DNA of 64,000 bases, from IMG/VR virus record IMGVR_UViG_3300045988_146009, positions 1-64,000 of that record. One strand, written 5' to 3'. Below the pieces are notes generated by a model, which did not search any database, was not told the origin of the DNA, and saw only the letters and a list, made by a program, of their open reading frames with translations. The translations under genes and the position numbers were made by a program. Position 1 is the stretch's first letter; every line of letters starts with the position of its first letter. The DNA is from a virus. Positions 1-61,683 of the stretch are shown here, in pieces.

Positions 1-56
1 CCCGCTACGCCCGCTACGCCCGCTACGCCCGCTACGCCCGCTACGCCCGCTACGCA
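1..56. repeat. Tandem repeat of the 9-mer CCCGCTACG, about 6.2 copies, at the window edge
   Basis: Direct reading: cccgctacg is repeated head-to-tail from base 1. A single copy recurs at 39796..39804. Confidence 0.9.
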
Positions 57-9500: not shown

Positions 9501-10361
9501 GCTGGTTCTCCCTCCATGTGGATTCAAATGCTCATTGATATGGGTTCAAAGGAACCCCGTCAAAGCGCAGACCTGAAACAACTGGGTGGGGTATCAGCAA
9601 TCCCGGAAGCCTTTGGGAATGCCCTGCTCATGAGCTTAGGACTCCGCCCTTCTGCTGAACTTGCGGGAGGTAGGACGCTCGACTGGATGGAAAGGATAGC
9701 TACGACTGTAAAGGATAACCTCCCCCTATGGCCTACTCTGGTTCAGGGGGTGCAGACCTGGACAGGGATGAATCCGGATAGTGAAAAGGCAGGATGGTTG
9801 TTGAAGAACCTTGGCTTTGGTGTTCGTCGTCCCAAGAATATTAATGATGTCCTCCGGGACAGTCTTGCTAAAGGTAACAAGGACCTCTCCAATTCGTTGA
9901 AGAACCAGCGCATCATGGATACCAACCTTTACACGGCTGACCTTAGCGATGCAGAGTATGACAAGATTATCGAAGCTGATAAGGCTATGGTAATTGAGCA
10001 GAGTATTTCCCTCGCTAATAGGTTCCTGGCGTTGAAGGGGTTCCTCAAGGGGATGGGAGTCAAGGACGTTGACACGGTTCTTGAAGCATCTGCTCAGGAG
10101 GCGGGCATATCGTTGAAGGCTATGGATGACCTTATCTCTGGCCGGGCCAAAGACTTCATCTCTAACCAGAGGTTTGACAAGATTGAAGAGACGAGAGACC
10201 GCTTGCTTAACAGGCCCGGTATTACTCCGGAAGCTAAGAAAGCCATCCTCCGCCAGTTCCAACAAGCTGAGAAGGTGTATGACATCGACGCAGTAGATAT
10301 TACTTCCAGCTTGATTGAGCCGGATAATGTGGAGCAGGAGGTGAAGAGCCAGAAGAGATAG
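507..10361 (+). CDS. Giant virion-associated/ejected protein (3284 aa; probable true start at 591). It has an internal HExxH zincin-like motif and long Ala/Glu/Gln/Lys-rich helical regions. Candidate polyvalent/cargo protein.
   Basis: Uninterrupted 9.85-kb ORF. The motif LLHELTHVLDNH is at nt 5136..5150. No DxDGD or NADFDGD RNAP motif was found by eye. Every antisense ORF over this interval is shorter (longest 516 aa at 3588..5138) and treated as artefact. Confidence 0.85.
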   Translation: MVQKGHSLYGLCPFLFTREGLTNILYASMPNDTNQEPLTYRSFGPKNPQTEYYKQLGREQSQTRWQEGRQARAQEAQQTPLSEEAKFLDTLNKTFKQEEEASYTQEQRAYTQEQRAISAEDRGIRKEEKEESKKEKQASKRDKQIRDWLSGINTRTPGKSLGFSTEAEYEDYLTKTKPETLVDITKFKANDPEEIGRARSAVEEMGASLVLSGEHPQVAEGSFRSLEPQDKANRLLSKSKYGLTKTEDGSYVVDERFLARVNDPSTAGMGNENIARAIVNNLKSIISKEDERGRSDYLIPDVEEVTNLVRNARAKNRETYQEYEKIRERFAVPKGEEEQKAVAPEKVGEQNGGDSSRTQPTLVQHVLSEVDRFFTVNPEAMEYLNTLGAKTGEEIPGAIEDQKFREQARRGIELKDQLARAISEANPAIDLRTVRNELDDDALLYREAVSQFYGGEIPEEVSSAILNRTTQLAQQRQALVASDYAKAEKDAIAEHLKSLGLDEGVALSIGISGLTNRHIAESDTGMGTMRSAVNEALQQYQSGAGQLAASMSFGEQKGYRDPLSHMQWVNIGDGKIAYAFVDPGTNERVGNGFIVDFGNVDQQAKALGVSREAYLDNLALPFKMGNLNATDEANSLFAWDKLNGKLVENATAESTGGLAYYDNDLIERSVLRAVEAGAPAEVVDKYRENLLQLQKQNAKDMIDQMLGQYEAVANLVASDSKTLDILFPGIRLAMNAMHNDFRDYYAENKGKMTNEEIISSFLADEQNRQGFLAITMAGAKTVARYKAAAIGASQFVSEGSRIIGLGTGDPAKYNNMWENLHKEEQAINTITTRAGGVAEWGAEIGNVLLQIAETTTTGGIGGVSGRVGTMTGRLAKLFGEAVAFKAATPGTMRLGQVITKLGGGVERLVAGPGRAALTQASSRGSSLAISAKLFTDAAAPTFGEVSNATYNEEMARLAKDPATAGLPESVRMEMAQNVATTKGSIAGIGYGIFSTILNNRAGFNRMIRKATGATTKAPGIFGKLESSLEGPGIFNLKGLPGKEKAISIAKQVGRLSASAVEGGTEELADEALQWAWQTLTQHGEIREEDIASERDVWDAASKIFILGAIGGEVGHGIQAMTALPAEVSNRRDQAIQAQQLYGEAMRDALDSDVEGANTALIEALKEGLEKSSAIADAAITSKEAAMSVARNGHIQADENVINEWSSMISQLPDGASVQLNNFSAEYSRLKRIGDETGAASLHQAFVEDIAASDNLSDTQRQIAGELILQLTQGTPTAEFVEETSTQVVLPEGLEELAAVEVEEAPAPVTEELKPEGDLVEQEVEEEVVQIGERDYGYNAPNPVPFVQMLSDWYTSETPITPEIRGEMNSVLTDLELEDPDIYDFITDGKEEVDRATVRRLLTVANLTGPDGPIAVDMKGNTEIQKGNALLTDKTVWSKYDKNVEIQDSNWAADVFNMVGEGMQPIQNVLDDVLNTVQDERTRNNIKDIVEFLEERGVPVSVATIQGDSNIAGLTMMDPSSPEQHIALNFSAKNVKSSPADVLLHELTHVLDNHLRETDPLYAERVASIEEIVRSNWANIQKEAERVARTAVTEEEQAEIDQFIAEMEQALFNKQTEFEGGREFLPNVITNPIMGEVIAQGNLPFDQALDQWASPNNLARISQIGRGKVSRIVHNLINAVSSILKGAQVVEGKVNPNTAVIRVEEGTLADPTRMKIVSPKLAEYKPGVEDENVFITDRGVDAALFSSSENFVGAGKRLFRTANVKGGFTADKRTGKKVKEFAGNFQTYVNELVARNERTKRYVTQQTKGMEDSERATVINSIVNYTGDLGNTLDPKVTRRIFAETNNKVEQARVAREAEVDAANNEYAKFIADRRKAIIQAEARVNALAGTQALQNVGVAITQAVQVAKEVPQVDEKNPMAVAAARFRKAQEELNPVMKEIYSTLDEDAKAEMNEAYDKTMKAIAEDLAQDFDNPAEIVPGLLSIGGLQNVPSVDDLSAMFTSVIKANRLGWLKKDADAVRAAKDITVAQQARRERIAQAEKNYQTKVGRGGMKNGVWTSPGTVWLERDAAMRAEKNRMETVYAMKRNEARKELLKYPFGARLLNVLDDNRRAIATMEANLMQRRGAIGLGTKVRDFTYLSRTFAAVGKESINFRKAMMELLDSNGEVKPEFTHLVGILNNAIQSYMRENISRYNRGISETLDNMLAMSKVADELGLDGSEYLGFKGKDVWKNVSEYLTKDPALAESALNTINNGHWNEIAKMKDGSVELRLIINKASQLDNLLSSADVGEKSRLRSKMRKAKADLMNKAAEDYVLSSMGVTDTDLRSFLLGLNSPEQITEAFKSTPYLDSSVISNLMGTDENLRTRISNTMDYVRKSTAIEMQKQGVNLTANQRDMSLLADGEVADALIATARNVFKETLSKERNEENIFANRKNLMDSELQILGVRGFSNLTDAFGVIQNTLSSQGRAYVNQVITHDVARSLERHGVVTGERTKENTHLLEFQNKANPLNGMYAERDIALVLYQAMRPDEAIMRGKEFGKKLQSHWGNNWGMLRSIGGFVSMLTLVRTPSATLRNMAGTMGQSLNAGALPFDKGVIKGYGEVYQLAQDFVVANILSAAGSVGVRGAVNSEIMANAEKRFNQSMQRYRDLGLLDAGAANFMKEQWKQGLNEMSQKEGSEISLPDEDAMFSSLVSELGDRSTAKKAMDLAKRIAYGTFVSPMSVAASAYSVPDVIAKIILFNGESHKVSKVVKAELAQAEKLSRAGKEDKLTSYMKDALAAKKEGTLTSYIERRAADRTKNLLPTGARTPDWVNKVSIFGMPFFSFMYHTWQSVPYSIGYGMEELRAARFATNTADKVSLYMDATQKFGGAILGQYAMMELMRFALPIVTQAIMGMVTGDDEEDKMQMLEASSFTRWLARNAGLSADYDQNGELFFWFDKDNETFIVQDGQYLLPYKSLGETLGAIINLAGLNPFSDKSEANQFEDDYTAQLLDYVQSTAGSPSMWIQMLIDMGSKEPRQSADLKQLGGVSAIPEAFGNALLMSLGLRPSAELAGGRTLDWMERIATTVKDNLPLWPTLVQGVQTWTGMNPDSEKAGWLLKNLGFGVRRPKNINDVLRDSLAKGNKDLSNSLKNQRIMDTNLYTADLSDAEYDKIIEADKAMVIEQSISLANRFLALKGFLKGMGVKDVDTVLEASAQEAGISLKAMDDLISGRAKDFISNQRFDKIEETRDRLLNRPGITPEAKKAILRQFQQAEKVYDIDAVDITSSLIEPDNVEQEVKSQKR
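519..552 (+). terminator. Putative intrinsic terminator hairpin (8-bp stem with one mismatch, T-run)
   Basis: GGGCACAG...CTGTGTCC followed by TTTTCTCTTT. It lies inside the 5' end of the longest version of the giant ORF, which suggests the real start is the ATG at 591. Confidence 0.4.
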
Positions 10362-10430: not shown

Positions 10431-11036
10431 ATGAAGAAACTCAAACAACACTACGGCACTATCCCACCTGGGGGTTGGTCATTCACCATACCGCTCGAAA
10501 TGAGCGAAGTGCTCGTAGGGACCAAGATGATTGCTCCGACCTTGTGGCAGTTGAAGGACGAATTGAACAAGCTGTTCATCCGTAATCAGGAAAGCTTTAA
10601 TGAAACTCTGTTCGAACAGTTCATGTGCAGGAACCTTCCGGAGGACTGGTGTGAAACGTGTGGAGATGAAGGGGACCCGTGGATGGAAGAGAGACCCTTC
10701 GATGCGAAGAAGATTGCCGCCTTCTTTATTACCCTGCTCAGATGGCTACGCAATGGGAAGAAGTTTGTGAGCAAGGAGGAAGCCCAGCGGAGGTATTCGA
10801 AGTGCCTGTCCTGTCCGTTTAGTACACGAGATGTTCCTCCAAGTTTACGCTTAGAGGGGTGCAAGAGTTGCGAGGTGGAGAAGGCCGCGAGGGGAACCAT
10901 CCTGGAAGCGACGAAGAAGTATGGTGCCGTGGACGAGGGAGAGGAGGAACAGGGATTGTCTCCCCTCTATTGCAAGGTGTGTGGATGTGAGTTAAGAGCC
11001 AAAGTCTGGTTTGATATACAGACCAAGTGCTGGTAA
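10431..11036 (+). CDS. Hypothetical Cys-rich protein (201 aa) with several CxxC pairs
   Basis: ORF with pairs CETC, CLSC, CKSC and CKVCGC. Looks like a zinc-binding protein of unknown function. Confidence 0.65.
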   Translation: MKKLKQHYGTIPPGGWSFTIPLEMSEVLVGTKMIAPTLWQLKDELNKLFIRNQESFNETLFEQFMCRNLPEDWCETCGDEGDPWMEERPFDAKKIAAFFITLLRWLRNGKKFVSKEEAQRRYSKCLSCPFSTRDVPPSLRLEGCKSCEVEKAARGTILEATKKYGAVDEGEEEQGLSPLYCKVCGCELRAKVWFDIQTKCW

Positions 11037-11050
11037 GAAAAAATACAAAA

Positions 11051-11090
11051 AGCCCCGAAGAGAACTGGAAAAACTCTTCGGGGCTTTTTG
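11051..11090. terminator. Strong, probably bidirectional, intrinsic terminator at the convergence of the + and - blocks
   Basis: AGCCCCGAAGAG-loop-CTCTTCGGGGCT, a 12-bp perfect stem. An A-run lies 5' and TTTTTG lies 3'. Confidence 0.75.
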
Positions 11091-11159
11091 ATTGACAACA
11101 ATAAGTGAGGGGGCGTAACCCTCTTGACATGTTGAATATACTATATAGGGATTATTATG

Positions 11160-11438
11160 TCAAGGACAAAATTCCGTAGATGGGCAGACGGTGAAAGAGT
11201 TGCGGGGAGAGGGAGGGATAAGTGGAGGTTGTTTCCATTCAAATTTTCCAAAGTAAAGAGAGGTGTGTAGTCCCATCGGAGCAACCTGTTCTTCTGTTCT
11301 GATGAAGAAGGAATCAACGCCACCGCCGTAGAAGATAGGGTTGCTCAAGGGTTCCTGTCTGTTGCTTGGGGTGAAGAGAATGAGTCTTCCCCAATTGTTC
11401 TGGTCCTTTAGTTCGATGATTAATTCGTGATAGTTCAT
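11160..11438 (-). CDS. Hypothetical protein (92 aa)
   Basis: ORF only. Proline-rich C-terminus. First gene of the leftward block. Confidence 0.4.
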   Translation of the reverse strand: MNYHELIIELKDQNNWGRLILFTPSNRQEPLSNPIFYGGGVDSFFIRTEEQVAPMGLHTSLYFGKFEWKQPPLIPPSPRNSFTVCPSTEFCP

Positions 11439-11920
11439 TACTTTGAGGTGGGTAGAATTACTACTTTGAAAAGTTGAAGGTAGTGATGATAGGTGAAAAG
11501 GATTATGTCCATCCAGTCGTCATCCTCCTTGTTGTACAGGGTAATCCTACCATCAGGCTCAACCCGTATCACATCCAAGGTGTTCCCGCAAAGCTCCAGG
11601 GTTGGGGAAGGAACATTTTCGTATGTGCAAAACATAGACTTTGCGAACCCGATGTCGAGTAAGGCCAGTCCCTCGTCGAAAGAAAGGGGAAGAGAAAGGA
11701 TGGGGTCAATCGTCGTGCTGTGAATGTACCCATTAATATTTTCACTGCATCCCTCCTGGAGAAGTTTTTTCCTGCTAGAAAAGAACATAGCTGGGTGGAA
11801 GGACTTCCGTTCACAGGAGAATATCTTCTCGTGGTGGTTCTTGAAAACCAGCTTGCTTGAATCCGTGGTCTCATACAAGGTGTATGGCTTGAGGATTGTT
11901 TCGATAATTGTGTCGCTCAT
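11438..11920 (-). CDS. Hypothetical protein. The ORF track gives 11438..12025, but the likely start is MSDTIIE at 11920.
   Basis: The N-terminal extension of the long ORF covers a terminator hairpin and the GTATGACACAA motif, so an internal start is favoured. Confidence 0.55.
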   Translation of the reverse strand: MSDTIIETILKPYTLYETTDSSKLVFKNHHEKIFSCERKSFHPAMFFSSRKKLLQEGCSENINGYIHSTTIDPILSLPLSFDEGLALLDIGFAKSMFCTYENVPSPTLELCGNTLDVIRVEPDGRITLYNKEDDDWMDIILFTYHHYLQLFKVVILPTSK

Positions 11921-11974
11921 TGTTACTGGACTATAGCAGGGGAGATTAAAATGTAAAGGGTCTCTTGTGTCATA

Positions 11975-12012
11975 CAAAATAAAACCCCAGGAACGCGCCA
12001 ACGTTCCTGGGG
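11975..12012 (-). terminator. Minus-strand intrinsic terminator (11-bp perfect stem) followed by TTTTATTTTGTATGACACAA
   Basis: CCCCAGGAACG-cgccaa-CGTTCCTGGGG. On the minus strand a T-run follows, then the recurring GTATGACACAA motif. Confidence 0.65.
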
Positions 12013-24911: not shown

Positions 24912-25604
24912 TTATCTCTCCGCATGTTCTTTTACCTTGTCACGTTTAACCAACGGCAAGACGGGAGGAAACACCCCGCTTGCGTAGTCCTCCCGGCTAA
25001 CTCCCTGCCAAGCATAACCTTTGTATGTAGGCTGACGGCGTTTTACTACGTTGTTAATTCCAGCCGCTAACCCCTTTACCGCCCGCGCCGCATCCCAGTA
25101 ACTAGGATACATGGTGATAGGCTCCAGGGTTTCCCGGTTTATCTGCATGACGGGCCGCGCGGATTTGTGCAATCCCTTTTCAATGTTCCCCTTCAATGTC
25201 TTTTTCCGTTTTTTCACGCAGTTACCGTAACGTATGTTTTCCCGGTGAGTACACCATTGCAGATTCTCCGCACGGTTGTTCATGGGGTTTTCATCTAAAT
25301 GGTTTACATCTAACTCGCTTATTTTGTACCCTTTAAGATGCGCGCCTAACGGCACAAACGCACCCGCAACAAGGCGATGAACATAATATTTATAGTGCCA
25401 TCCTCCCTTTTCATCCAGCAAGGGAACATATTTATAACCGTTCCGGCTAGTCTGGATGCGTAAAAGCCTGTTGACAAGCTTGCTCCACACCGCGCCCATG
25501 TTACTCACAAGGTACAATTCCCTGCAACCTTTCAGCGGTACAGGTTCCCACAGTTCCCCCGGTCTAGTACATTCAGCTAGTGTCTTCTTCTCCTTCTTCT
25601 TCAC
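24912..25604 (-). CDS. HNH homing endonuclease (HNH_3 core plus a C-terminal AP2/NUMOD-like DNA-binding region)
   Basis: Motif LDVNHLDENPMNNRAENLQWCTHRENIRYGN. The C-terminal part carries YKGYAWQ. Confidence 0.7.
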   Translation of the reverse strand: MKKKEKKTLAECTRPGELWEPVPLKGCRELYLVSNMGAVWSKLVNRLLRIQTSRNGYKYVPLLDEKGGWHYKYYVHRLVAGAFVPLGAHLKGYKISELDVNHLDENPMNNRAENLQWCTHRENIRYGNCVKKRKKTLKGNIEKGLHKSARPVMQINRETLEPITMYPSYWDAARAVKGLAAGINNVVKRRQPTYKGYAWQGVSREDYASGVFPPVLPLVKRDKVKEHAER

Positions 25605-25789
25605 TTATCAATCCCTTTCCTGCTTTTAATCCCTTTCAATTTCTCTCCTAATTCTTTAAGCCGCGCTTCTTCTTCCGTAAGCTTTCGATTCCCCTGCTTA
25701 ATCCCTCGGTTTATGCGCCTAAAATCCTCGGAGAGTTTATCCAGTTTCCGCCTCAACTCTATAAACTGTTCGGTACTGTTAATTGCCAT
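25601..25789 (-). CDS. Small coiled-coil protein (62 aa)
   Basis: ORF with 4-nt coupling to the HNH gene. It is the first gene of the leftward block beside the control region. Confidence 0.4.
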   Translation of the reverse strand: MAINSTEQFIELRRKLDKLSEDFRRINRGIKQGNRKLTEEEARLKELGEKLKGIKSRKGIDK

Positions 25790-25835
25790 GTCTCCTTTAT
25801 ATAGTAGGCACGCCGTTTTTCAAGCTTTTTGTGCG

Positions 25836-25871
25836 CCATTTCCCCGCTTTTCAAGCTTTTTATAGTGTACC
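25836..25871. promoter_or_regulatory. Direct repeat TTTTCAAGCTTTTT x2, 22 bp apart, at the left edge of the control region
   Basis: Read directly. Candidate promoter or operator element for the leftward block. Confidence 0.35.
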
Positions 25872-26199
25872 GCAATTGTTGCGTTAGCCCTAAAAACTGC
25901 ACCATTACTGTTACTTTTGGCTTTCTTTGGACTTTCTCCCGAATTCCTTCGCACAGAAAGGGGCCTATAAGGGCCTTTTGAGCAGGGAGCCTTACTATTA
26001 TACCCGGCGATTTTGCCCGCCCGTATACGCAAACCTCATGCGTTTTATTTTCGCCAATTCCGCACTTTTCGCCCTAAACGTACTAAGTGCACCTAAAATG
26101 GTACATAAATCATCCATTCGTAACGGAAAGAGTACTATTCACTTTTTATACAACTGTATACATTCTGGCATTTCGTACCGTTATAGGTACTGGTTCGTA

Positions 26200-28110
26200 T
26201 CATTTCCGTGCTATACGCCCTAAACGGTCTTCCCGTTCGTGTAGGGAGTAATGGGCATTTCGTCCTTTTCGTTCGTGTAGGGCGTGGAGTCTGCTACGTC
26301 ATTCCGGTCCATGTAGTGCATTCCGTTCACTTCGTTCTTCCGTCCTTCTGGTCCATGTAGTTCGATTAGGGCGTGTAGTGCGTATAGCTCCATCTAGGGC
26401 ATTCCATCCTTTCAGTCCCTATAGTTCGATTAAGGCATTCCGTTCACTTCGTCCTTTAAGTCCGTATAGTGCGTTTAGTGCGTTTAGTGCGTTTAGAGTT
26501 TTACATTTTTGTAAAATATCAACATATCATGATGTGTAAATATGTTGTTTCCTATTGACCCCTTCACTACATATCGGGGCATATAATGGGAGAGACACAC
26601 TATATGTAGTGTTCTCTGCTCTATCAGGCACCAATCATTTTGACGAATATCAAAATGTAAAACTAAAAATTTATACGTTTGAGAGGTTTTGTATAAAGAT
26701 TATATACACTTGTATACAAAGTGAGAGTAAAAGGTATTTGTTTCCCATTGGCACCATACATCATGTAGTGCCTATTGGTTACGGGAACACTACATACAGG
26801 AGTCATGATAACATATCTACATATCATGATATGATGATGTTTTACATTTTTGTAAAACTAAAAGGAGAGAAGCCTCTTCTGTTTCCTATTGACCCCTTTA
26901 TATTTCAGAGCAGGGAAATTCCAACACTCCGGACTTCACGCACTAAACGTCACTTTACGTTCTAAGTCAACACGTTACGCATATCCGCAACCGATTAGGC
27001 ATTACAAACGTTTCTCGAAATTATCTCTTAAAAAACAAATGTTATTTCATAGTACGTATTGATTATTAGGGACTTACGTTTTCAATGTCGTACATAAACG
27101 TAATGATAATATTAGTTCAGAAAGGTACGCTATCGGCGTAGAATACAATAAGCCCCCTGAAAAAGGTACTTGAATCGGTGCATTTCGAGCGTGAAAATCG
27201 CTTAGAACGTGAAGGACACCACGACGGTGACTCCCCCTTCGAGCGTAACGCGCTCATTAGTAAATCATTAGGTCACATTTTTCCGGAAATGGGGTTTCTG
27301 CTTTTTCAAAATGGGCCCCATGCCGAGGGGACACCACGGGTCTCGATTGCCTTTTCCTGCTCCGGCGTGGGCCTAAAATAGGCGAGAGGGGGTACGTATG
27401 GACAGACTGTACGTGAACGGGGGTGTGAGGGGCCTTCTATGGGCCTACGCATAGGTGAGTGCGGTTGAGGTCATTTAGCCCGGAAGGTCCATATTGGGAT
27501 GGAAATTCCTGAACTATTTTCATAACTGCCTCAGTGATAATCATTTTATGGAGCAGGGAAGTCCAAATAATCCGATTGTGTGATGATGTGTATATTTTGA
27601 ATACGAGATAACTTCACTCTCCAGGTTACGCCCTAAATCCTTAATTTTTAATAATATATAAATACTGTGTACTATGTAATATCTAATTACTATATAGAGG
27701 TATAAAAATATTTATTATTTAATATAAAAATAATACCAAAAAAGAAAAGAAGAAAAGACGAAATTGAAAAAGTAAAAAAAAATAATTCTAGGTCTATATG
27801 GGGGAGGGGGGAATAACAACACACACTATGCCCCTTTTTTTCACTGCTTGTATTTACATATTAAAGGGTTATGGTGTGAAAAGACACGTAAATATCGTGA
27901 ATACGCATCTGCACACTTTTTGATACAGTAACACAAGTTTTCACCACGTTATCCCAAATTTATACCTGTTTTAACCCCATTTTGTACATTACCATTATAT
28001 CTTGGGATATTCTGTTATTCTCTAAAAAACACCAAATCGAATCGCCCTACACGCCCTAATCGTACCTAAGCGGACCCTATCGCACTCCACGTTCTCTACG
28101 TCCTCTTCCT
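26200..28110. repeat. Complex non-coding repeat region, candidate replication origin and divergent control region. It holds iteron-like direct repeats, nested inverted repeats and small palindromes.
   Basis: Direct repeats: CGTTCGTGTAGGG x2, GCATTCCGTTCACTTCGT x2, TGCGTTTAG x3 in tandem (26470..26496) with an inverted copy at 26939..26949, and GTTTCCTATTGACCCCTT x2 (26547 and 26881). The palindrome TTTTACATTTTTGTAAAA occurs twice (26499 and 26839). A 16-bp inverted pair CGATTAGGGCGTGTAG (26353..26368) and CTACACGCCCTAATCG (28047..28062) flanks the region. No credible ORF lies anywhere in it. Confidence 0.6.
27641..27795. other. Extreme A+T-rich tract (~155 bp), candidate DNA-unwinding element, followed by the G-tract GGGGGAGGGGGG
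   Basis: Direct reading: taatatataaatactg...aaaaataataccaaaaaagaaaagaagaaaagacgaaattgaaaaagtaaaaaaaaataatt. Confidence 0.5.
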
Positions 28111-28173
28111 CCCAAAACCCCCTCTTCGCCCCTCTCCTCCCCAACTTTTTCTCTCCGCACACGCAAATTTAGG

Positions 28174-28202
28174 TTGACTCTTTCTCTGCTACCTGCTATA
28201 TC
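28174..28202 (+). promoter_or_regulatory. Sigma70-like promoter TTGACT-N17-TATATC upstream of the primase gene
   Basis: The hexamers are read directly, about 80 nt upstream of the ATG at 28282. Confidence 0.45.
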
Positions 28203-28281
28203 TCTCCCACACGCGAAGGACCTGTTTTACCCCTTCGCACCACCAAATGCCACATCCTATGTGGCCAAACACTAATCGAAC

Positions 28282-31200
28282 ATGAACCCCGTAGAATACG
28301 ATAAGCCCACTTCGGGCGGTACGGACCTGACCATTGTAGCCTTGTCTGCTCAGTCATGGTCCACCTGTTATAGACGGAATACAGCCCGCCGAGCCCATGT
28401 GGGGAGTTGTAAAAACCCCGCACTTCTCCCATTTTCCAAGCTGGCAAGCTTCCTGCAAAGTGGAGATAACCATAATCTTTCCCTGCTCGAAGAAGTAAGC
28501 AATCAAATTTCAGTACACTACTGTATCTCAAATGGTATTAAACCTGACGAAGTTGAGGGCATTTTGCCGGACGGGGTGTACAGTTATGGCTTGAAAAGCT
28601 TGAGCGGGATGGAAAAAGAGGAGGCGGCGAAGATTTCAAAAGCCCACCTCCCGGCTATTGTCCCCTCTGTTATTTTCGACCCTTCCTACAGCTATGCCGA
28701 CATGTCCCCGAAGAAAGCCGTCTCCTACTACGGCGAAAGCTGGAAGCATACCGGAGTCTTCGGATTTGACATTGACCTGGGCAAGGACGGCAACACGGAC
28801 GATGCGGACGAGTTGTACGATATGGGCGTTTCTTTCTTTTCCACCCTGCCGGGCTTCCTGCTCCTGTTCCGCAGTCCCAGCGGTGGATTGAAGGTGCTCA
28901 TACAGGTAGACGGAGCTACGCGGGTTCGGTTGAACGAAGGAAGTAACGAAGGAAGAATTGCGTTGCACAAGGCCATCTACAAGCGGATTAGCGAGGGGAT
29001 TAACGAGAGTGCCCCGTTTATTCTTGATTCCCGCACCAACGATGTAGCCCGGATTCAGTACCTTTACCGGGAACCGGGCTACGTATATGTACCATCCGAA
29101 TTAGATTCGAATGGTACATACTCGGGGTTGGGCCATTGGGATGCACGGGATATTTATGCGGAGAAGGATGCGGATTCCCTCCATTTGCTGGACGAAGAAA
29201 ACCGAAAGGCTTTGCCTTCCAGCTTGTTGGGCTTTATATCCTACCTGCACGATACGGGCTACACGAACTACGCGGAGCACCTGGAAGGTAATCTCGTAGG
29301 GTATGCGGACGGGTTCAAGTGTTCCTGCCCCTGCTGTGTTGAAGAAGCGGGAGGGCAGGTAGGCAATATGGACTTGTGGTTCATACCGGGCGACGGGGAC
29401 ATGAATACGTGGAGAGTGACCTGCTTCCATGAGAGCTGTAAGACCGGGAAGGGCACTAAGACCGGGAAGGACATTACCAGCATGGCCGAGCTATACCGCG
29501 GGTATGAGAGCTATTTAAGCGAGAAGGTAAGCAACCTAACTAGCGAAGCGGTAGCCTCGGCGAAGGAAAAAGAAAAGGAGCCGGAAGAAGGGGAAGAAAA
29601 TATAGCGTTCGATTACATGCGGGACTACATTACCTCCCTGCTCCAATCCAACAGCAAGACCCGTTACCGGGTGAACCCTCCTTACAGCACTGAGCAGATA
29701 CTTGAGGGCGCGAAGCCCTGGGCTGGCAAGCTTATCATGGAAGAATATACCGTGAAGAGCAAGGGCCGCCCGAAGAAGGGAGAAGAAGGAGAAGAGGGCG
29801 GCGAGAAGAAGGAAAGGCCCGCGATTTGCCGGGAGAACCTTGAAATCATCCTTGCTGAATGCTTTGACATCTTCGTTACCTACAATACTGTTTCCCAGGA
29901 ATACTGGGCGATTGATACCAAGAACAGGTACGTATCCAACTGCTATAGTATCGACCAGTTCCGGAAACCGCTGGCCTATGCTGTTCATGAGTTCGTGTAC
30001 AAGCCGTTCGGGGTAGCCTACGGGATGGTGGATGTTGAGCTTGAACGCGCCCTTCCAGTCATCGGCAATAGCCATTACTTCAATCCATTCCTGAAAATGA
30101 TTGAGTATGATGATTGGGATGGGAAGGAGGACCGGGTGGGGAGGTTTATTGACATCCTCATTTCGGCGGTTGACCCGGCGTGGAGCCTTGATGGTGGAAG
30201 CGGAGAACTTCTGAACAAGATAAAGGCAGACATCGAACGGGACCCGAAGGGGGCTGAGAAGATTGGTTTGACCGAAGCCCTGGTGGACCCGAAGGAATAC
30301 ACGAGGGAGGTGATGAAGACATTCCTCGTTTGTGCCTACCGGAAATACATACATGGTTGCGAACCCCACATGTACACCAAGGCCGAGGAGCACGACAACA
30401 TGTGCCCTGTAATTTATGGTGAGCAGGGGGTGGGGAAGAACACGCTGATTGAAAGTCTTGTTACCGTGCTTGGTGAAGGCTATCTGTGGAACCCTTCCGG
30501 CCTCCGTGACATCAGTGGGGATAACAAGGACAACAACATGAAGGCTTCCTCCTGCCTTATTGCCCACCTGGACGAAGTGGACAAGTATACTGAGGGGGAA
30601 GAAGCGATTAGCACGTTGAAGCAGGTCATCACGAGCAAGACCAACAAGATTCGTCTTCCTTTTGCCCGGCACTTGCAGGACCTCCCTGTAAAAGTCAGCT
30701 ATATCGGAAGTACGAACAAGAGTGCTTTCCTGCTTGATGCCAGCGGAAACCGACGCTTCGCTACCATCATCACCAAGGGGGGCTACAACATGAATGAAAT
30801 CCAGTGGCTACGTGCTACCAACATCTGGCCCCAGGTAAAACGGATGGCGGAAGAAGACGAGAACGTAGGCCGCTACGGGTGGTACAAGCTACAGAAGATA
30901 ACCGAGCATAACAACTCAACGAACGTAATGAGCGAAGGGACCGATGTGGCCTTACTGGAACTTCTGGTTGATGCCAGCGACATCATGGATACCAAGGGCC
31001 ACATTCTTCTTCGTCACGTTAGTCAGGAGTTCTCCAACTACACGACAATCCTGGAGACCCTACGCTCTATGCAAGGGTCTACCAAGCGTGTTACCCGGAA
31101 CGATGTAATGAGATTTACGAACGACATCATCAAAAAGTACGAGTTGAGCGATAGGTCCGATTTGTACAAGAGGGTCCGAAAGACTCTTTCCGGCAAACGC

Positions 31201-31302
31201 CCAGGTTCCACTATCAGCAAGGTTGTCAACCAACCCTCCTTCATCCCTGCTTTCCTGTATGAAGAGATGGTCGCCGAAGGCTTGGCACCGAGAATACGCT
31301 AA
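28282..31302 (+). CDS. Primase-polymerase (AEP-like) fused to an SF3/D5-like helicase (1006 aa)
   Basis: The N-terminal region has a DxD motif (GFDIDLGKDG) and SPSGGLKV, which is AEP-like. A Cys cluster CSCPCC...CFHESC follows. The C-terminal region has Walker A GEQGVGKNT and Walker B LIAHLDEVD, typical of D5-type primase-helicases. Confidence 0.8.
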   Translation: MNPVEYDKPTSGGTDLTIVALSAQSWSTCYRRNTARRAHVGSCKNPALLPFSKLASFLQSGDNHNLSLLEEVSNQISVHYCISNGIKPDEVEGILPDGVYSYGLKSLSGMEKEEAAKISKAHLPAIVPSVIFDPSYSYADMSPKKAVSYYGESWKHTGVFGFDIDLGKDGNTDDADELYDMGVSFFSTLPGFLLLFRSPSGGLKVLIQVDGATRVRLNEGSNEGRIALHKAIYKRISEGINESAPFILDSRTNDVARIQYLYREPGYVYVPSELDSNGTYSGLGHWDARDIYAEKDADSLHLLDEENRKALPSSLLGFISYLHDTGYTNYAEHLEGNLVGYADGFKCSCPCCVEEAGGQVGNMDLWFIPGDGDMNTWRVTCFHESCKTGKGTKTGKDITSMAELYRGYESYLSEKVSNLTSEAVASAKEKEKEPEEGEENIAFDYMRDYITSLLQSNSKTRYRVNPPYSTEQILEGAKPWAGKLIMEEYTVKSKGRPKKGEEGEEGGEKKERPAICRENLEIILAECFDIFVTYNTVSQEYWAIDTKNRYVSNCYSIDQFRKPLAYAVHEFVYKPFGVAYGMVDVELERALPVIGNSHYFNPFLKMIEYDDWDGKEDRVGRFIDILISAVDPAWSLDGGSGELLNKIKADIERDPKGAEKIGLTEALVDPKEYTREVMKTFLVCAYRKYIHGCEPHMYTKAEEHDNMCPVIYGEQGVGKNTLIESLVTVLGEGYLWNPSGLRDISGDNKDNNMKASSCLIAHLDEVDKYTEGEEAISTLKQVITSKTNKIRLPFARHLQDLPVKVSYIGSTNKSAFLLDASGNRRFATIITKGGYNMNEIQWLRATNIWPQVKRMAEEDENVGRYGWYKLQKITEHNNSTNVMSEGTDVALLELLVDASDIMDTKGHILLRHVSQEFSNYTTILETLRSMQGSTKRVTRNDVMRFTNDIIKKYELSDRSDLYKRVRKTLSGKRPGSTISKVVNQPSFIPAFLYEEMVAEGLAPRIR

Positions 31303-31645: not shown

Positions 31646-31667
31646 TCTCTTCTATTCGATAGTGTTA

Positions 31668-31699
31668 GCCCCAGGTAGCCCATGTTGGTTGCCTGGGGC
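31668..31699 (+). promoter_or_regulatory. Hairpin with an 8-bp stem GCCCCAGG/CCTGGGGC and a 16-nt loop
   Basis: Read directly, downstream of the 31338..31645 gene. Confidence 0.35.
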
Positions 31700-31706
31700 C
31701 CCTTTG

Positions 31707-31730
31707 TATACGCATAGGTTTATGCGTATA
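31707..31730. promoter_or_regulatory. Perfect 24-bp palindrome TATACGCATA-GGTT-TATGCGTATA. No T-run on either side, so a candidate operator (dimeric DNA-binding site).
   Basis: 10-bp arms read directly. The partial motif GTATGACAAAAAG follows immediately. Confidence 0.5.
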
Positions 31731-32007
31731 TAGTATGACAAAAAGGATGGAGATTGTTCTTGAAATAATGACTACGCGGTGGTAGGGTCTGTTCATGGAC
31801 ACAGAACAAGATGAATGGAAATCCTGCACGACTTGCGCTTATGCCATCTGGCCAGGAGCTTCCTACCCCTGCTCGGTTTGCAACTATAAGGACATGTGGG
31901 TTCCACAGGAAGGGGACGGGGACGAAGAAGATTCCAAACATGGGGGTGAAGCCGAGTACGAATAAAAGCTAAATATTATACAGTAAAAACTTACACCTGT
32001 CAAGCCA

Positions 32008-32241
32008 ATGGGTATGAATAATAAAATCTTCGCATGCTTCAAATGTCATCTCTATTTTACGCACGACGACTATGCTGTTGTTAACCACGAAAAGTGCCCA
32101 GTATGCTCTGCCAAATTGGTAGCTTTAAACCCGGTTCAAATCAGTTGTGATACTTGCTTGCATATAGCTAGAAGAATAACGGAATCTCCGTGCAATAGAT
32201 GCTTCGCAAAAGAAGACTATGAATTTTGGGTCCCGAATTAA
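32008..32241 (+). CDS. Zinc-ribbon mini-protein (two CxxC...CxxC units), first member of a tandem zinc-ribbon array
   Basis: CFKCHLYF...CPVC and CDTC...CNRCF. Confidence 0.5.
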   Translation: MGMNNKIFACFKCHLYFTHDDYAVVNHEKCPVCSAKLVALNPVQISCDTCLHIARRITESPCNRCFAKEDYEFWVPN

Positions 32242-32242
32242 A

Positions 32243-32470
32243 ATGAAGAAGATATGCGAGACCTGCCATTACTTTGGCCAGGACCCCATAGATACTCCGT
32301 GCCATATATGTGAAGAGTCTTTCTTTTGGGAACCCAGGGACCCCAACGACCCTCTTCCCAAACAACCAATGGAACGAGATTGCAGAAACTGTGGTTTTAG
32401 TACTCAACCCGCACACACCTATCCCTGTAGCATGTGCTATACCTTTTCCCAATGGAAATCCAAGTCATGA
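32243..32470 (+). CDS. Zinc-ribbon mini-protein (two CxxC...CxxC units). The ORF track starts at 32219; MKKICETC at 32243 is preferred.
   Basis: CETCHYF...CHIC and CRNCGF...CSMC. Confidence 0.5.
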   Translation: MKKICETCHYFGQDPIDTPCHICEESFFWEPRDPNDPLPKQPMERDCRNCGFSTQPAHTYPCSMCYTFSQWKSKS

Positions 32471-32646
32471 AGAAGACCTGCATTAACTGTTGGAGAACCT
32501 TCTACCCTAATCCTGACAATGAAGATGAAATGAGAGGGTATTGCCCCTCATGCAATCTTTCGTTTGACAAGATGCTAGAACATCTAGAAAAGCTAGAAGC
32601 TCTTATCATTAAAAACATTTCTAAGAAATACACACCATCAACATGA
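32467..32646 (+). CDS. Zinc-ribbon mini-protein. The ORF track starts at 32434; MKKTCINCW at 32467 is preferred, giving an ATGA overlap with the upstream stop.
   Basis: CINCWRTF...CPSC. Confidence 0.5.
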   Translation: MKKTCINCWRTFYPNPDNEDEMRGYCPSCNLSFDKMLEHLEKLEALIIKNISKKYTPST

Positions 32647-33170: not shown

Positions 33171-33210
33171 GCCGCGCAAGACTTCTAACATCTTGCGCGG
33201 CTACCCTTTT
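33171..33210 (+). terminator. Intrinsic terminator (11-bp perfect stem GCCGCGCAAGA/TCTTGCGCGGC) with a weak T-run
   Basis: Read directly after the stop of the 32643..33161 gene. Confidence 0.55.
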
Positions 33211-33289
33211 CACCAATCAAACATACATGAAACACATGGACTTCGATAGGGGTAAAGTATCATATATCTGTCATAATGTCAAGATGTGA

Positions 33290-33317
33290 TTGACTTACGA
33301 GACAGCTAATGTAGAAT
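33290..33317 (+). promoter_or_regulatory. Sigma70-like promoter TTGACT-N16-TAGAAT upstream of the 33376 gene
   Basis: Read directly. Confidence 0.45.
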
Positions 33318-33375
33318 AGACCCATGAACAAAATCAAGTTTCAATGCTCTACTTGTTCTAACACTTTCAACTTGA

Positions 33376-33630
33376 ATGAAACCGTTTGACACCCATTTCC
33401 TTTTTGCGTGCTTCTCCTGCTATACTCCCTTCAATCTTTCCGAAATCGACCAGACGAAACTGTGTTGTCCAATATGCGGAGACGAAGTAGACTACAAGCA
33501 AGACCCTGGGGATGTCGTAGAATATAAAACCCCGCTCACATGCTTCGAGCAGGACCCTCCCATATCCACTAGGGTAACTTACCAGTGCCCCCATTGCCAA
33601 GCTCCTTTATCTGAACTACCCAAACTCTAA
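33376..33630 (+). CDS. Zinc-ribbon mini-protein (84 aa)
   Basis: CFSCYTPF...CCPICGDE...CPHC. Confidence 0.5.
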   Translation: MKPFDTHFLFACFSCYTPFNLSEIDQTKLCCPICGDEVDYKQDPGDVVEYKTPLTCFEQDPPISTRVTYQCPHCQAPLSELPKL

Positions 33631-33651
33631 CAAACAAAACAGAACAAAACA

Positions 33652-33951
33652 ATGTTGCCAGAAATCAGCCCGCTCGAATTGCAAATCCAGACGATGACTT
33701 CCGAACTGGAACGTCTCCCTCAAGACAAGTCTATTTGGTCCCTCACCCCTACAGGTAAAGGAGGACAGCTTGCTCTTGACTTGAAGCTTAAAGTAAACGA
33801 GAACCAGTACCTGGATGCCAGCAGGGTATATGAGATGGACGAAATTCCCACCGCAAACGAAAGCATCAAGCGCATTGTGGATGCTTTCCTGCTCAATATT
33901 TCTCTCCTGGATTATCAAAAGGATTTCCTCAAATCAGCAGAAGTAGAATAG
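33652..33951 (+). CDS. Hypothetical protein (99 aa)
   Basis: ORF only. Confidence 0.5.
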   Translation: MLPEISPLELQIQTMTSELERLPQDKSIWSLTPTGKGGQLALDLKLKVNENQYLDASRVYEMDEIPTANESIKRIVDAFLLNISLLDYQKDFLKSAEVE

Positions 33952-34037
33952 CATGCAAGGTATTAATTTCTTCTTTTATATCCTCTGTTCAATCCTCTGT
34001 TTAATCCTACTCGTTTTTATCCTATTCTCAGCACATA

Positions 34038-35927
34038 ATGACGACCCCTACGCCTAACACTACACCTAAGCCAACCAGGAATAGCCTGACTCCACGCAAG
34101 GTAGCCGATTGCCATGAACTTAACGGCGATACTATCGCTATTGACTTTGAAACGTATTACGACAAAGACTATAGCTTGAAGAAGACCTGCTACCATCATT
34201 ACTGCAATGACCCCCGGTTTGATGCGTACATTATGTCCGCGGCGACCGACGAGGAAGTTTGGGTGGGACACCCGAGGGATTTCGACTGGGAAGTAACGAG
34301 GGATAAGACCGTCATCTCCCATAACGCCGCATTTGACCGGACGGTATACGAGATTGGTTTGAAAGCCCCCGGAGACTGGCCTATGCGTAGCTGGATGTGT
34401 TCGATGGCCGCGTGCAACTACTTGAACATCCGTGGCAACCTTGCACAGATTTCTTGGAAGCTCCTGAATATCTCCATGAGTAAAGAAGTTCGTGAAGCCG
34501 CTCAGGGCGTAGACTTTAGCAAGATGGAAGAAATCCCGGAGGACATGATAAACTACGTGGCCTTCGATAGTATTTCCTGTCTTGCCGTCTGGTATGCCAT
34601 TGAAAAGTATTGGCCCTCTGATGAAAGATACCTGTGGAGTCAGACGGTGGACATGGGCGTAAGGGGCATTCCCACCAACAAGAAATGGCTCCAGGCCGCA
34701 TTGAAGCGTTTAGAGGAGAGGGTGGCCTATCACGAAAGCCAGATTCCATTACAGAAAACACAATCCAGAAACGAGCTCATTGCCTATTGCAAAGCCAACG
34801 GAATCGAACCCCCCACCACTACCGCAAAGACCAATCCCCTGTGGGAGAAGTGGCTGGACGAATGGGGCCAGAGTGTCCCATGGATTCGGCATCTGGCTTT
34901 ACAGCGGTCAGCCAATCGCGTCCGCTCTATTTTCACCACTGCTCTGGAACGACTCTATACCGACGAGAATGGCGTAGACCGGGTTCCCTTCACCCTTCGT
35001 TATATGGGGGCTGGAACAGGAAGGTGGTGTGCGGGTTCTGATGGGTTTAACGCCCAACAGTTTAACAGAGAACGAGTTGAGGGAATTAACACCCGTCACA
35101 TGATTCAAGCAGGTAAAGGATTCCGTCTTGTCGTAGCCGACTTCGCCGCCGTTGAGGTACGAGTAGTTATGTGGCTATCAGGTCAGACGGAGATTTTCGA
35201 TTACCTAAAGCAAACCCCTGACCTCTATGAAGCTTTTGCACGATTCCTTGGGCAGATGCCCGCAGGTGCCAAGACGCTAAAAGGGTGGTGTGAAGAAAAT
35301 CACAGTCCCCTTCGCCATCAGATTAAATCTCAGGTTTTGGGGGCTGGCTTCTGTTTGGGTTACAAGGGACTTCACAAGAACAACCCCAACATCCCTCTTG
35401 AACGGTGCAAGGAGCTGATTGATGGTTTCCGTGCGAAGTGTCCCAAAGTGGTAGCTATGTGGCATAATCTAGAACGAATCATGAAGCGAGGTATTGCGTC
35501 CCCCAACCGTTGCTTTGCTTTGACTCTCCCCTCCGGGCGAAAGGTTTGGTATCGAGACATCCACCGTGAACTAATTACACCGAAGGACAAAGATAAAAAA
35601 CCTTTCACTGCATGGGTTGCAAGCACCCCTGATGATAACGGAAAACCAGGGAACGTAATCCTTTCGGTCGCCCTACTCACCAATAACATTGTTCAGGCCA
35701 CCGCCCGTGACCTCATGAAGAACGCTATTGTGAAGGCTGGGATTCAGGGGAAGAACTTCGAACTCGTTCTTCCGGTGCATGACGAACTGGTTGTACGATG
35801 CCGGAAGGAGGATGCCCCCGCTGTAGAGAAAGCCCTGTCCAAATTCATGACGGAACAACCTTCCTGGGCTTCAACCCTGGAGCTTTCTGCACCCCCTTCT
35901 ACCTTCTATAACTACACAAAGGATTAA
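34038..35927 (+). CDS. Compact family-A DNA polymerase with an N-terminal 3'-5' exonuclease domain (629 aa)
   Basis: Exonuclease motifs: Exo I IAIDFETYY, Exo II ISHNAAFDRTV, Exo III YVAFDSIS. Polymerase motifs: motif A VVADFAAVEVRV, motif B KSQVLGAGFCLGYKG, motif C PVHDELVV. Confidence 0.85.
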   Translation: MTTPTPNTTPKPTRNSLTPRKVADCHELNGDTIAIDFETYYDKDYSLKKTCYHHYCNDPRFDAYIMSAATDEEVWVGHPRDFDWEVTRDKTVISHNAAFDRTVYEIGLKAPGDWPMRSWMCSMAACNYLNIRGNLAQISWKLLNISMSKEVREAAQGVDFSKMEEIPEDMINYVAFDSISCLAVWYAIEKYWPSDERYLWSQTVDMGVRGIPTNKKWLQAALKRLEERVAYHESQIPLQKTQSRNELIAYCKANGIEPPTTTAKTNPLWEKWLDEWGQSVPWIRHLALQRSANRVRSIFTTALERLYTDENGVDRVPFTLRYMGAGTGRWCAGSDGFNAQQFNRERVEGINTRHMIQAGKGFRLVVADFAAVEVRVVMWLSGQTEIFDYLKQTPDLYEAFARFLGQMPAGAKTLKGWCEENHSPLRHQIKSQVLGAGFCLGYKGLHKNNPNIPLERCKELIDGFRAKCPKVVAMWHNLERIMKRGIASPNRCFALTLPSGRKVWYRDIHRELITPKDKDKKPFTAWVASTPDDNGKPGNVILSVALLTNNIVQATARDLMKNAIVKAGIQGKNFELVLPVHDELVVRCRKEDAPAVEKALSKFMTEQPSWASTLELSAPPSTFYNYTKD

Positions 35928-36105: not shown

Positions 36106-36390
36106 ATGAACCAACGAAAGAAACTTCAAAAAGAACTTACCGCCAATCGGATTTCAATGCGCCACCTGAGACGGTTGGCGTATAGTCTTGAATCCAAGGG
36201 AGATTTAACCGCTACGCAGTGCATCATTGTAAACAACAAGATTCCCCTTTTCTTCAATTTCTCTCCTTCCATTCCCGTCAACTTCAAACCCATCTACCCC
36301 TTCATTTACAATCACGCTTATTGGATGAAGGACAAAAAGGACTGGGCTTTGACCTGCTACGAAGACGACAGTTATGCTTACAATAAATAG
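36106..36390 (+). CDS. Hypothetical protein (94 aa)
   Basis: ORF. It overlaps the HNH gene start by 17 nt. Confidence 0.4.
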   Translation: MNQRKKLQKELTANRISMRHLRRLAYSLESKGDLTATQCIIVNNKIPLFFNFSPSIPVNFKPIYPFIYNHAYWMKDKKDWALTCYEDDSYAYNK

Positions 36391-37114
36391 TATGGATACT
36401 TCTAGTGAAATATGGGGGATTATTAAGGATTTCCCGAATTACAGTGTAAGCACTTTAGGAAGAGTAAAAAATAACCTTAGTGGGAAATTGTTGTCACTTT
36501 CAACTTCTCAAGGAGGATATTATTTTGTAGCTCTATATCGAAATAATGGTGGAGATAAAAAATATCTTCGGGTAAATCGTCTGGTGGCGATGACGTTTAT
36601 TCCGAATCCTCATAATAAATCTCAAGTAAATCATATAGATGAAAATAAAAAGAATAATAGATGGGATAATTTAGAATGGACTACACCTACGGAAAATAGA
36701 AATCATGGGACAAGTATTATTCGTTCAGCAAAAAGTCTCAGTCCCGCGGTTGTCCAATATTCTTCAACAGGTTATTTTATTGCAGAATACCCAAGTGCTG
36801 TGGAAGCAAGAATAGTTACAGGAGTATCTAATTTAGCCATTGCTAAATCATGTAGAAAAGAAAGGGCGATGGGGGGAGGCTATCAATGGAGAAAAAGGGA
36901 GGATGATTACCCTCTTCAAATTGAATCCGCAGTTGGACCTATTAAAGCGATACTTAAATATAGCCCTACAGGGGAACTTCTTTGGATATATTCAAGTATA
37001 AAAGAAGCGAGCGAAGATACCACGGCTACTCTTTCAAATATTGTAAGTAATATAAAAGGAAGGAAGAGTGTAAAAACAGTAGGGGGCCACATTTATAGAG
37101 AGGAAATAGTATAA
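36374..37114 (+). CDS. HNH homing endonuclease with an N-terminal NUMOD4-like motif
   Basis: N-terminal WGIIKDFPNYSVSTLGRVKN, then HNH_3 core NHIDENKKNNRWDNLEWTTPTENRNHG. The codon usage is AT-rich and unlike its flanking genes. Confidence 0.7.
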   Translation: MLTINSMDTSSEIWGIIKDFPNYSVSTLGRVKNNLSGKLLSLSTSQGGYYFVALYRNNGGDKKYLRVNRLVAMTFIPNPHNKSQVNHIDENKKNNRWDNLEWTTPTENRNHGTSIIRSAKSLSPAVVQYSSTGYFIAEYPSAVEARIVTGVSNLAIAKSCRKERAMGGGYQWRKREDDYPLQIESAVGPIKAILKYSPTGELLWIYSSIKEASEDTTATLSNIVSNIKGRKSVKTVGGHIYREEIV

Positions 37115-61169: not shown

Positions 61170-61206
61170 TCTTGTCATACCGTACTAAACGTACTACACT
61201 TTCGAT

Positions 61207-61683
61207 ATGGACTGGAACAACCTATATTATGATGCAGGACGGAACTCGTGGATTACCCAGCAACAAGCTAGCTGGCCTTCCGTCTCCGTCCCTCCTCCGG
61301 CTGTAGTAGCCGATGCAAGCCTAATCCTTTCTTCCCCGGACGTTACTCAAGCTTTAACCATCACTGTTAAGAATGTTCCTACAGGTGGGAGTGTGTCAAC
61401 CCCTGCTGTCTTCGATATAGCCATGGTGAGTAAAAATGGAGAGGTAGTTTATAATAGTCAGAAACCCTTTAAAGTAGATATGAGCGGAAATACTTATACT
61501 GTTTCAGGAGCTTTCTCACTTATTGATTCTTACCCCACTATCATCTCCATTCTTGAAGATTACCCCTACATTGATGTAGACATGACCTTAAAGGATACCA
61601 CCAACTTTAAATTCATAACCTCCCCTGTTCGTGTACGAATCTACAATGAACTCTCTAATGTAAAGAAGCCCTATGGAAACTAA
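61207..61683 (+). CDS. Hypothetical protein (158 aa)
   Basis: ORF only. Confidence 0.55.
   Translation: MDWNNLYYDAGRNSWITQQQASWPSVSVPPPAVVADASLILSSPDVTQALTITVKNVPTGGSVSTPAVFDIAMVSKNGEVVYNSQKPFKVDMSGNTYTVSGAFSLIDSYPTIISILEDYPYIDVDMTLKDTTNFKFITSPVRVRIYNELSNVKKPYGN

Follow-up and report, generated by a model that had tools for sequence, protein, structure and literature searches.

Positions 25790-28281 of a 64,000-nucleotide stretch of viral DNA (IMG/VR record IMGVR_UViG_3300045988_146009; hereafter the window) form a gene-free region crowded with short repeats. We read this region, with a probability of roughly 55%, as an iteron-type origin of replication that is served by the self-loading primase-helicase encoded next to it and that shares its DNA with promoters and operators. 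The window makes up most of a ~68.8-kb phage genome independently assembled from several human-gut metagenomes (contigs of 68,820 and 68,848 bp), and the region is 100% identical across four independent assemblies. A leftward block of ~30 small genes without known function finishes at 25789, and a rightward block opens at 28282 with the gene for a primase-helicase of 1006 amino acids (28282-31302, plus strand) and continues with a family A DNA polymerase, a helicase, an exonuclease, the large terminase and structural genes; the two blocks diverge from the region. Features by which iteron origins are recognised coincide here, namely clustered short repeats in non-coding DNA, an adjacent AT-rich stretch and linkage to a putative initiator gene. 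An earlier note, made from the letters of the window alone, had proposed an origin at this place. The context supports that proposal, through the adjacency of the primase-helicase, the presence of the least stable duplex of the window and a layout found again in distant relatives; origin activity itself we infer.

The most extensive repeat is a single array with a 9-bp period over 26230-26500, which the earlier note had not recognised as such (identity at lag 9 is 0.515, with further peaks at lags 18 and 27). This left array (26230-26496) holds ~30 degenerate, minus-oriented units of the form CGCMCTAMW, five of them exact minus-strand matches, and ends in three perfect units TGCGTTTAG (also written TAGTGCGTT) at 26470, 26479 and 26488; Tandem Repeats Finder reports 4.2 copies at 26459-26496. 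A right array (28043-28106, plus strand), lying 180-240 bp ahead of the primase start codon and inverted relative to the left one, consists of CGCCCTACA CGCCCTAAT followed by degenerate 9-bp units (lag-9 identity 0.461). Besides the units at 28043-28060, others opposite in orientation to the left array are found at 26070 and 26216 (CGCCCTAAACG, plus strand, two pattern matches within 26055-26226), at 26939 and at 27629 (CGCCCTAAA). The one at 26939 lies in an iteron unit at 26924-26949 (plus strand) and had been taken for an inverted copy of the tandem 9-mer; an inverted copy is indeed present, in the form of an exact 12-mer of the left-array end (CGTTTAGTGCGT / ACGCACTAAACG) and not of the 9-mer.

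These repeats are far denser than chance would produce. The region contains 78 direct and 33 inverted pairs of 10-mers, against means of 4.9 and 5.4 (maxima 17 and 16) in dinucleotide shuffles and means of 11.6 and 6.8 in 46 other blocks of the window. The extended pattern CGCMCTAMWCG occurs 10 times in the 64-kb window, where 0.15 matches are expected, always within 26070-28062, and 11 of the 12 exact matches to CGCMCTAMW in the window fall inside the region. Every repeat named in the earlier note could be located: CGTGTAGGGCG at 26274 (plus) and 28043 (minus), GCATTCCGTTCACTTCGT at 26318 and 26435, TAGTTCGATTA-GG at 26358 and 26422, and the inverted 8-mers CACTACAT / ATGTAGTG at 26565 and 26788 (plus) and at 26311, 26604 and 26763 (minus). 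The inverted pair of the 16-mer CGATTAGGGCGTGTAG likewise exists, its left copy starting at 26363 instead of 26353; it is part of a longer inverted pair of 23 nucleotides, 91% complementary (26360-26382 / 28043-28065), that brackets 1.66 kb. Direct repeats of another kind, TGTTTCCYATTGRC, stand at 26546, 26739 and 26880 on the plus strand (span 26546-26898), where GTTTCCTATTGACCCCTT of the earlier note is found at 26547 and 26881 and, as a 79% copy, at 26739; TGTTTCCYATTGRC has no exact match in the viral contig collection. Elsewhere in the window, two abutting iteron-like 9-mers (CGTACTAAA CGTACTACA, one mismatch each to the unit) occupy 61181-61198, shortly before a gene that begins at 61207; a tandem pair of this kind would arise by chance with a probability of about 0.03. 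A perfect tandem CCCGCTACG x6 at window positions 1-55, inside a coding gene ending at 474, encodes Pro-Ala-Thr repeats; it has the 9-bp period of the non-coding arrays and a loosely similar sequence.

Between the oppositely oriented arrays lies an AT-rich stretch (27591-27790) that is 80% A+T over 200 bp and 88% over 27634-27733, with the unit at 27629 on its left edge. The earlier note had suggested a melting-profile calculation, and by nearest-neighbour free energy no other part of the 64-kb window forms a weaker duplex, whether computed over 50, 100 or 200 bp (z of 4.7-5.4, versus 3.7 for the runner-up). We regard it as a candidate DNA-unwinding element. The window region contains no exact DnaA box (TTWTNCACA) and is not oriC-like by this measure.

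The repeats adjoin a gene of initiator type, as had been asserted. Its product combines an N-terminal part, probably akin to BT4734-like primases, with a Cys/His cluster, a helicase core of VapE/DUF5906 and superfamily 3 (SF3) type and a predicted C-terminal winged helix. The helicase core (residues ~669-861) matches PF05272 at an E value of 1e-22 and also PF19263, and the family profile matches Rep1 of the Staphylococcus aureus pathogenicity islands (SaPIs; 7PDS, E 2.8e-29), so that the core is homologous to that of a self-loading Rep. The C-terminal domain (residues 862-1006, nucleotides 30865-31299) is a predicted winged helix whose best structural match is the origin-binding domain of phage P4 (1KA8). 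BT4734-like_N, which we take to be an archaeo-eukaryotic-type primase fold, is matched by five of the eleven aligned relatives and the window protein itself has no primase-domain match; the alignment of relatives contains invariant acidic, His and Cys/His positions. These relatives, at 22-39% identity, came from an exhaustive protein search (a word-indexed search with the primase retrieved only the primase itself), and their alignment in turn retrieved 25 loci in IMG/VR, all of them phage contigs of ~41-73 kb.

Most of the layout recurs in uncultured human-gut phages of ~60-73 kb whose primases are 25-36% identical: short-period arrays, a single-copy conserved element (CE, 27210-27298, plus strand, in the window) and an AT-rich minimum are kept upstream of the primase gene. 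Short-period tandem arrays precede the primase gene in most loci that reach far enough, mostly with 9-bp units that are specific to a lineage (for example CGGTTTCCA x6, GGGTTCCGG x9, CCCGGTTCC x7, GGGTGCAAT x7 and GCCACGGTA x5); arrays of 8, 12 and 19 bp are also seen. The closest lineage (loci L005 and L007) has units GTCC(G/A)TTTA and CCCTAAA, similar to those of the window, and in L025 and the L022 lineage the right array on the primase side is the inverted left-array unit, as it is here. Conservation in relatives, whose absence the earlier note had named as a refutation, extends to the kind and position of the repeats and not to their sequence, and lineage-specific units would be expected if a binding site had co-evolved with its protein. 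The coding sequence of the primase itself contains at least two copies of an array-like 9-mer (TCCACGGAT or CCCCGGAAC) in L010, L018, L020-L024 and L026, at ~+530 to +600 when counted from where the alignment match to the primase begins (query residue 14-116).

In 13 of 15 relatives, the CE and the primase gene enclose the least stable 100 bp of the locus. Around the AT-rich stretch each lineage carries a 7-9-bp box of its own in both orientations: the DnaA-box-like TTTTCCACA in L005 and L007 (5-6 exact copies in these regions, none in other lineages), GTCCTT in L012, and TGTCTCA in L014, L016 and L026. In L005, two AT-rich modules (5380-5900 and 7160-7660) flank the arrays and the CE and carry TTTTCCACA boxes plus near-matches, and L007 is arranged likewise. 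Another relative, L009 (primase 24% identical), has a gap of only 82 bp between leftward block and primase, and its non-coding region lies directly downstream of the primase gene (10880-11977), with 43-bp repeats, oppositely oriented GAGTCACCGAG boxes flanking a (TA)-rich core and a GGTATCG x7 array. The repeats and the AT-rich module therefore follow the primase gene and not the divergent junction, which favours an initiator-origin pair over a simple divergent-promoter region. The same L009 stretch contains GGTGGTGGT motifs, the reverse complement of the CE core ACCACCAC.

The CE is better conserved than the arrays and hardly varies among gut-phage lineages in which primase identity has fallen to ~25%. 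Its invariant core reads ACCACnACGGT..C.....CT.C, followed after 18-24 nucleotides by AAA and after 12 more by ATTTTT, and wherever the orientation of a locus is established (15 loci) the element is found on the primase strand. A strict pattern of the invariant positions matched once in each of 24 viral contigs and once in each of 52 contigs from human-gut metagenomes, of which L075 is an apparent chance match. We also searched 185,579 bacterial and archaeal genomes with this pattern and with the primase family for a hint of a host or a prophage, and neither found a match there. With 24 viral contigs, ~50 gut-metagenome contigs and none of the cellular genomes recognised, the pattern is a precise probe. 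In L017 and L025 the left-array unit ACGGTTTCC is found once inside the CE, oriented as in the array. A coding role was rejected, since the open frames differ between lineages. Upstream of the CE by 35 nucleotides lies a non-coding duplicate of primase codons 3-10 (27137-27175, plus strand; CGTAGAATACAATAAGCCCCCT, then GGTAC 6 nucleotides on), of which 22 nucleotides are 91% identical to 28290-28311 within a duplicated stretch of ~35 nucleotides (28290-28328); the copy may be left over from a duplication or serve in regulatory pairing.

Taken together, these features suggest how such an origin might work. The C-terminal winged helix of the primase-helicase would bind the 9-bp units of 26230-26496, 27629 and 28043-28106 as well as the scattered copies; oligomers would form on arrays that face each other across 27591-27790; this stretch would melt and the helicase would load itself without a separate loader; the N-terminal primase domain would prime synthesis; and forks would travel outward, co-directional with the two diverging gene blocks. 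We propose that the CE is a further essential cis-site. We consider it possible, though doubtful, that the CE represents a new kind of essential cis-element (a site for loading the primase-helicase or for the first primer, or one read as single-stranded DNA) and that the abutting 9-bp arrays nucleate a continuous protein filament or superhelix in place of separate iteron complexes, an origin architecture that would be undescribed for P4, SaPIs and plasmids.

Several observations weigh against an iteron origin with its own initiator. A 9-bp period over ~30 units is unusual for iterons, and SaPI origins have smaller arrays that stand nearer to their AT-rich DNA (the distances here are ~250 bp and ~1.1 kb). 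An inverted right array can be recognised clearly in the window, L025 and the L022 lineage, and is not evident in L017 or L019. GC skew gives a weak local minimum only, which cannot be told apart from what gene orientation produces. That the N-terminus acts as a primase is a prediction drawn from the relatives, the Pfam and PHROG matches of the window protein covering the helicase part only. Finally, iteron-like pairs are not restricted to the region: one lies at 61181-61198 in the window, and relatives have others within their primase genes or downstream of them, a distribution that a transcription factor would explain as well.

This last point bears on the idea that the region controls transcription only, its arrays and palindromes being operators for a phage regulator that sets the timing of the leftward (early) and rightward (middle or late) units, with the origin elsewhere. 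In the central module (26497-26859), 50-nucleotide inverted-repeat arms (26497-26546 and 26810-26859) each carry the palindrome TTTTACATTTTTGTAAAA (26499, 26840) and a palindrome of CATATCATGAT(A/G)TG type, and enclose an inner inverted pair (26600-26631 / 26768-26799). Outward-facing sigma-70-like hexamers lie in the arms (26540-26513, minus strand; 26808-26835, plus strand), where the palindromes overlap them, and a palindrome TTTTACAATTTTGTAAAA at 6572 of L005 resembles those of the module. Other promoter-like sequences stand at the two borders. On the left, a putative minus-strand promoter picked out by eye (TTGAAA-16-TATAAA) lies just upstream of the ATG at 25789, in the segment adjoining the leftward block (25790-26054); this segment also carries a direct repeat CCGYTTTTCAAGCTTTTT x2 (25813, 25844), the core of which, TTCAAGCTTTTTGTGCGC, is retained in L005 and L007 (95% over 21 nucleotides). 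On the right, a candidate primase promoter read directly from the plus strand (28175-28203, TTGACT-17-TATATC) has a counterpart, TTGACT-17-TATGGT, at the equivalent place in L005. A divergent transcription hub, as the earlier note suggested, is plausible here, and the central inverted repeat with its palindromes is probably an operator/promoter module for the outward transcripts.

As a complete explanation, transcription control appears unlikely to us. The divergence of the two gene blocks, the way in which left and right arrays mirror one another with respect to the direction in which the adjoining genes run (window, L022 and L025) and the iteron-like pair just ahead of the late gene at 61207 all agree with it. 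However, promoter-like matches are at chance level (9 found, 6.8 in shuffles) and of a sigma-70 type that may not be the host's; Bacteroides-type TAnnTTTG motifs (with upstream TTTG) are not enriched; and none of 20 small neighbouring proteins searched matches a DNA-binding family. It also leaves unaccounted for the extreme AT-rich minimum between CE and primase gene in 13 of 15 relatives, and the repeat region of L009 is found downstream of its primase gene and not at the divergent junction.

We think it improbable that the region is a genome terminus or packaging region, with physical ends or a direct terminal repeat as in T7- or N4-like phages and the CE as recognition or cut site of the terminase. 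The terminal repeat of T7 is adjoined by arrays of short repeats, which the arrays of the region would resemble, and a long non-coding stretch between sets of transcription units, a CE that is single-copy and better conserved than the arrays, and the finding that the contigs of 16 out of 25 relatives stop, on the upstream side of the primase gene, no more than 5 kb away from it would all suit a terminus. The contig ends, however, lie inside tandem arrays (some matching common assembly k-mers in length, such as 19 bp x 7 = 133 bp) or in (TA)-rich DNA of low complexity, and their positions vary between close relatives, as would be expected of assembly breaks rather than genome ends. Moreover, the phage of the window assembles as a circle with its breakpoints outside the region; one contig of 68,848 bp, whose MEGAHIT flag_3 presumably denotes an isolated loop, ends within an HNH gene.

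Still less probable in our view is a non-coding RNA locus, in which the repeats and the CE would be features of one or more abundant small or long RNAs. There is precedent in the crAss-like phage phi14:2, whose long intergenic regions are transcribed more than most of its genes (bioRxiv 10.1101/2020.03.07.982082), and in the L022 lineage the non-coding DNA is conserved like coding DNA (88-97% identity). A promoter-like site in L022 followed by a hairpin and a T-run could, judged by eye, bound an RNA of ~150 nucleotides. But Rfam (Rfam 15, at gathering score) recognises no family in the window or in seven relatives, and the CE yields no consensus structure on either strand (RNAalifold, ~-2.3 to -2.5 kcal/mol, at most one compensatory pair). 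Only the inverted repeats give low fold z-scores, and they do so on both strands, which indicates DNA palindromes rather than RNA; values down to -4.0 in 26497-26859 are expected for inverted repeats.

The suggestion that a mobile or selfish segment was captured here, with the inverted 23-mers of 26360 and 28043 as its ends, we can practically dismiss: the 91% complementarity of the pair, the 1.66 kb between its arms and the nearby HNH homing-endonuclease-like genes suit it, but the arms are units of the tandem arrays and not unique terminal inverted repeats, the interior contains no transposase or integrase gene and no open reading frame (ORF) that matches a family, target-site duplications are missing, the CE pattern is absent from the bacterial and archaeal genomes searched, and the same bracketing from different units in L025 and the L022 lineage argues for an ancestral architecture and against an insertion.

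The region is free of credible genes, as the earlier note held. Its longest ORFs, of 136 and 98 amino acids (both with TTG starts), have no Pfam or PHROG match at E<0.03; metagenome gene callers place only ORFs of 41-57 amino acids in it, none with a Pfam match; and a tRNA scan of the region found none. We considered the 9-bp array as a decayed gene for a collagen-like or other three-residue repeat and rejected this, the best frame having three stops in ~95 codons and copies occurring in both orientations. ORFs of 113-191 amino acids in the L022 lineage are of low complexity and broken by frameshifts between close relatives, and were judged spurious. L022 also contains, at 6198-6385, TTGACA-16-TATCCT with a GC-rich hairpin and T-run ~150 nucleotides on, a possible small RNA gene, and direct repeats of 34-40 nucleotides (GTCAAGCAAAATCGACATGCGGCCATTCCACGGG x2, the second copy with one mismatch, and GGCGCGTTCTAGGGTAGGACCCTCGATTAAATTC x2).

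The surrounding genome offers some further observations. Two homing-endonuclease-like genes of NUMOD4/HNH_3 type are present, one adjoining the non-coding region (24912-25604, minus strand) and one within the replication module (36374-37114, plus strand). Further gene-poor stretches lie between the primase and DNA polymerase genes (31650-32640 and 33190-34040). An ORF of 3284 amino acids (507-10361) has no Pfam, PHROG or Protein Data Bank (PDB) match and lacks the DFDxD motif of crAss-like virion RNA polymerases; on these grounds we rejected it as a virion RNA polymerase, for which the repeats would have been early promoters. Neither the region nor the large terminase has an isolate relative by DNA similarity in the phage collection, and against isolated phages the primase gives weak matches to the helicase domain only. 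Shine-Dalgarno sequences are nearly absent from the genes of the window, and this, together with the BT4734-like_N matches of the primase relatives, hints at a host among the Bacteroidota. We take the phage to be lytic, ~69 kb in size and a member of an uncultured human-gut family.

For a phage family with no isolate relatives in the collection searched and hardly any annotated genes, a candidate origin would be a first handle on replication, and this one is accompanied by its likely initiator, by lineage-specific repeat units and by an invariant 90-nucleotide marker. If the proposed pairing of protein and array is true, these lineages form a natural series of matched initiator and iteron specificities for studying how self-loading helicases recognise DNA.

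Among known systems, the SaPIs offer a close parallel. Their Reps are self-loading initiator helicases whose C-terminal winged helix binds short iterons placed in opposite directions on either side of an AT-rich region, and PriRep5 is a fusion of primase and helicase (PMC9371898). Shared with the region are the homologous helicase core, the C-terminal winged helix (here predicted), the opposed repeats around AT-rich DNA and the adjacency of the initiator gene. SaPI origins are, however, compact, with 6-12 iterons of 5-6 bp directly downstream of rep, whereas the units here are of 9 bp, number ~30 in one array, are spread over ~2 kb and lie mostly upstream of the gene, with a conserved element of 90 nucleotides and an operator-like inverted repeat in between.

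The alpha protein of P4 has the order predicted for the window protein, with primase, SF3 helicase and C-terminal winged-helix origin-binding domain, and its structure 1KA8 is the best match for the C-terminal domain of the window protein. P4 needs two separate clusters of octamer iterons, ori and crr, direct and inverted and several kilobases apart, and these resemble the two arrays of the region. The P4 primase is of DnaG/Toprim type, whereas the N-termini of the relatives of the window protein match BT4734-like_N, and unit length and copy number differ as well.

ORF904 of the archaeal plasmid pRN1 unites three domains in a single protein, an N-terminus of prim/pol type, an SF3 helicase and a winged helix at the C-terminus (PMC2777425), and an essential non-coding origin region adjoins its gene (PMC2777425; PMC4234260). 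The likeness lies in this three-domain order, predicted in part for the window protein, and in the adjacent non-coding region. It differs in that pRN1 is an archaeal plasmid, in that ORF904 is reported without sequence-specific binding and in that long 9-bp arrays do not appear in these pRN1 papers.

The iterons of theta plasmids and lambda, by comparison, are of 17-22 bp and spaced by about two helical turns, and their Rep or O proteins recruit a host helicase. These origins also place direct repeats beside an AT-rich unwinding element near the initiator gene, whereas the units of the region are of 9 bp and abut one another and the presumed binder is itself the helicase. Set against these systems, the region is most likely an unusually large and elaborate variant of a known device, one that also contains the CE.

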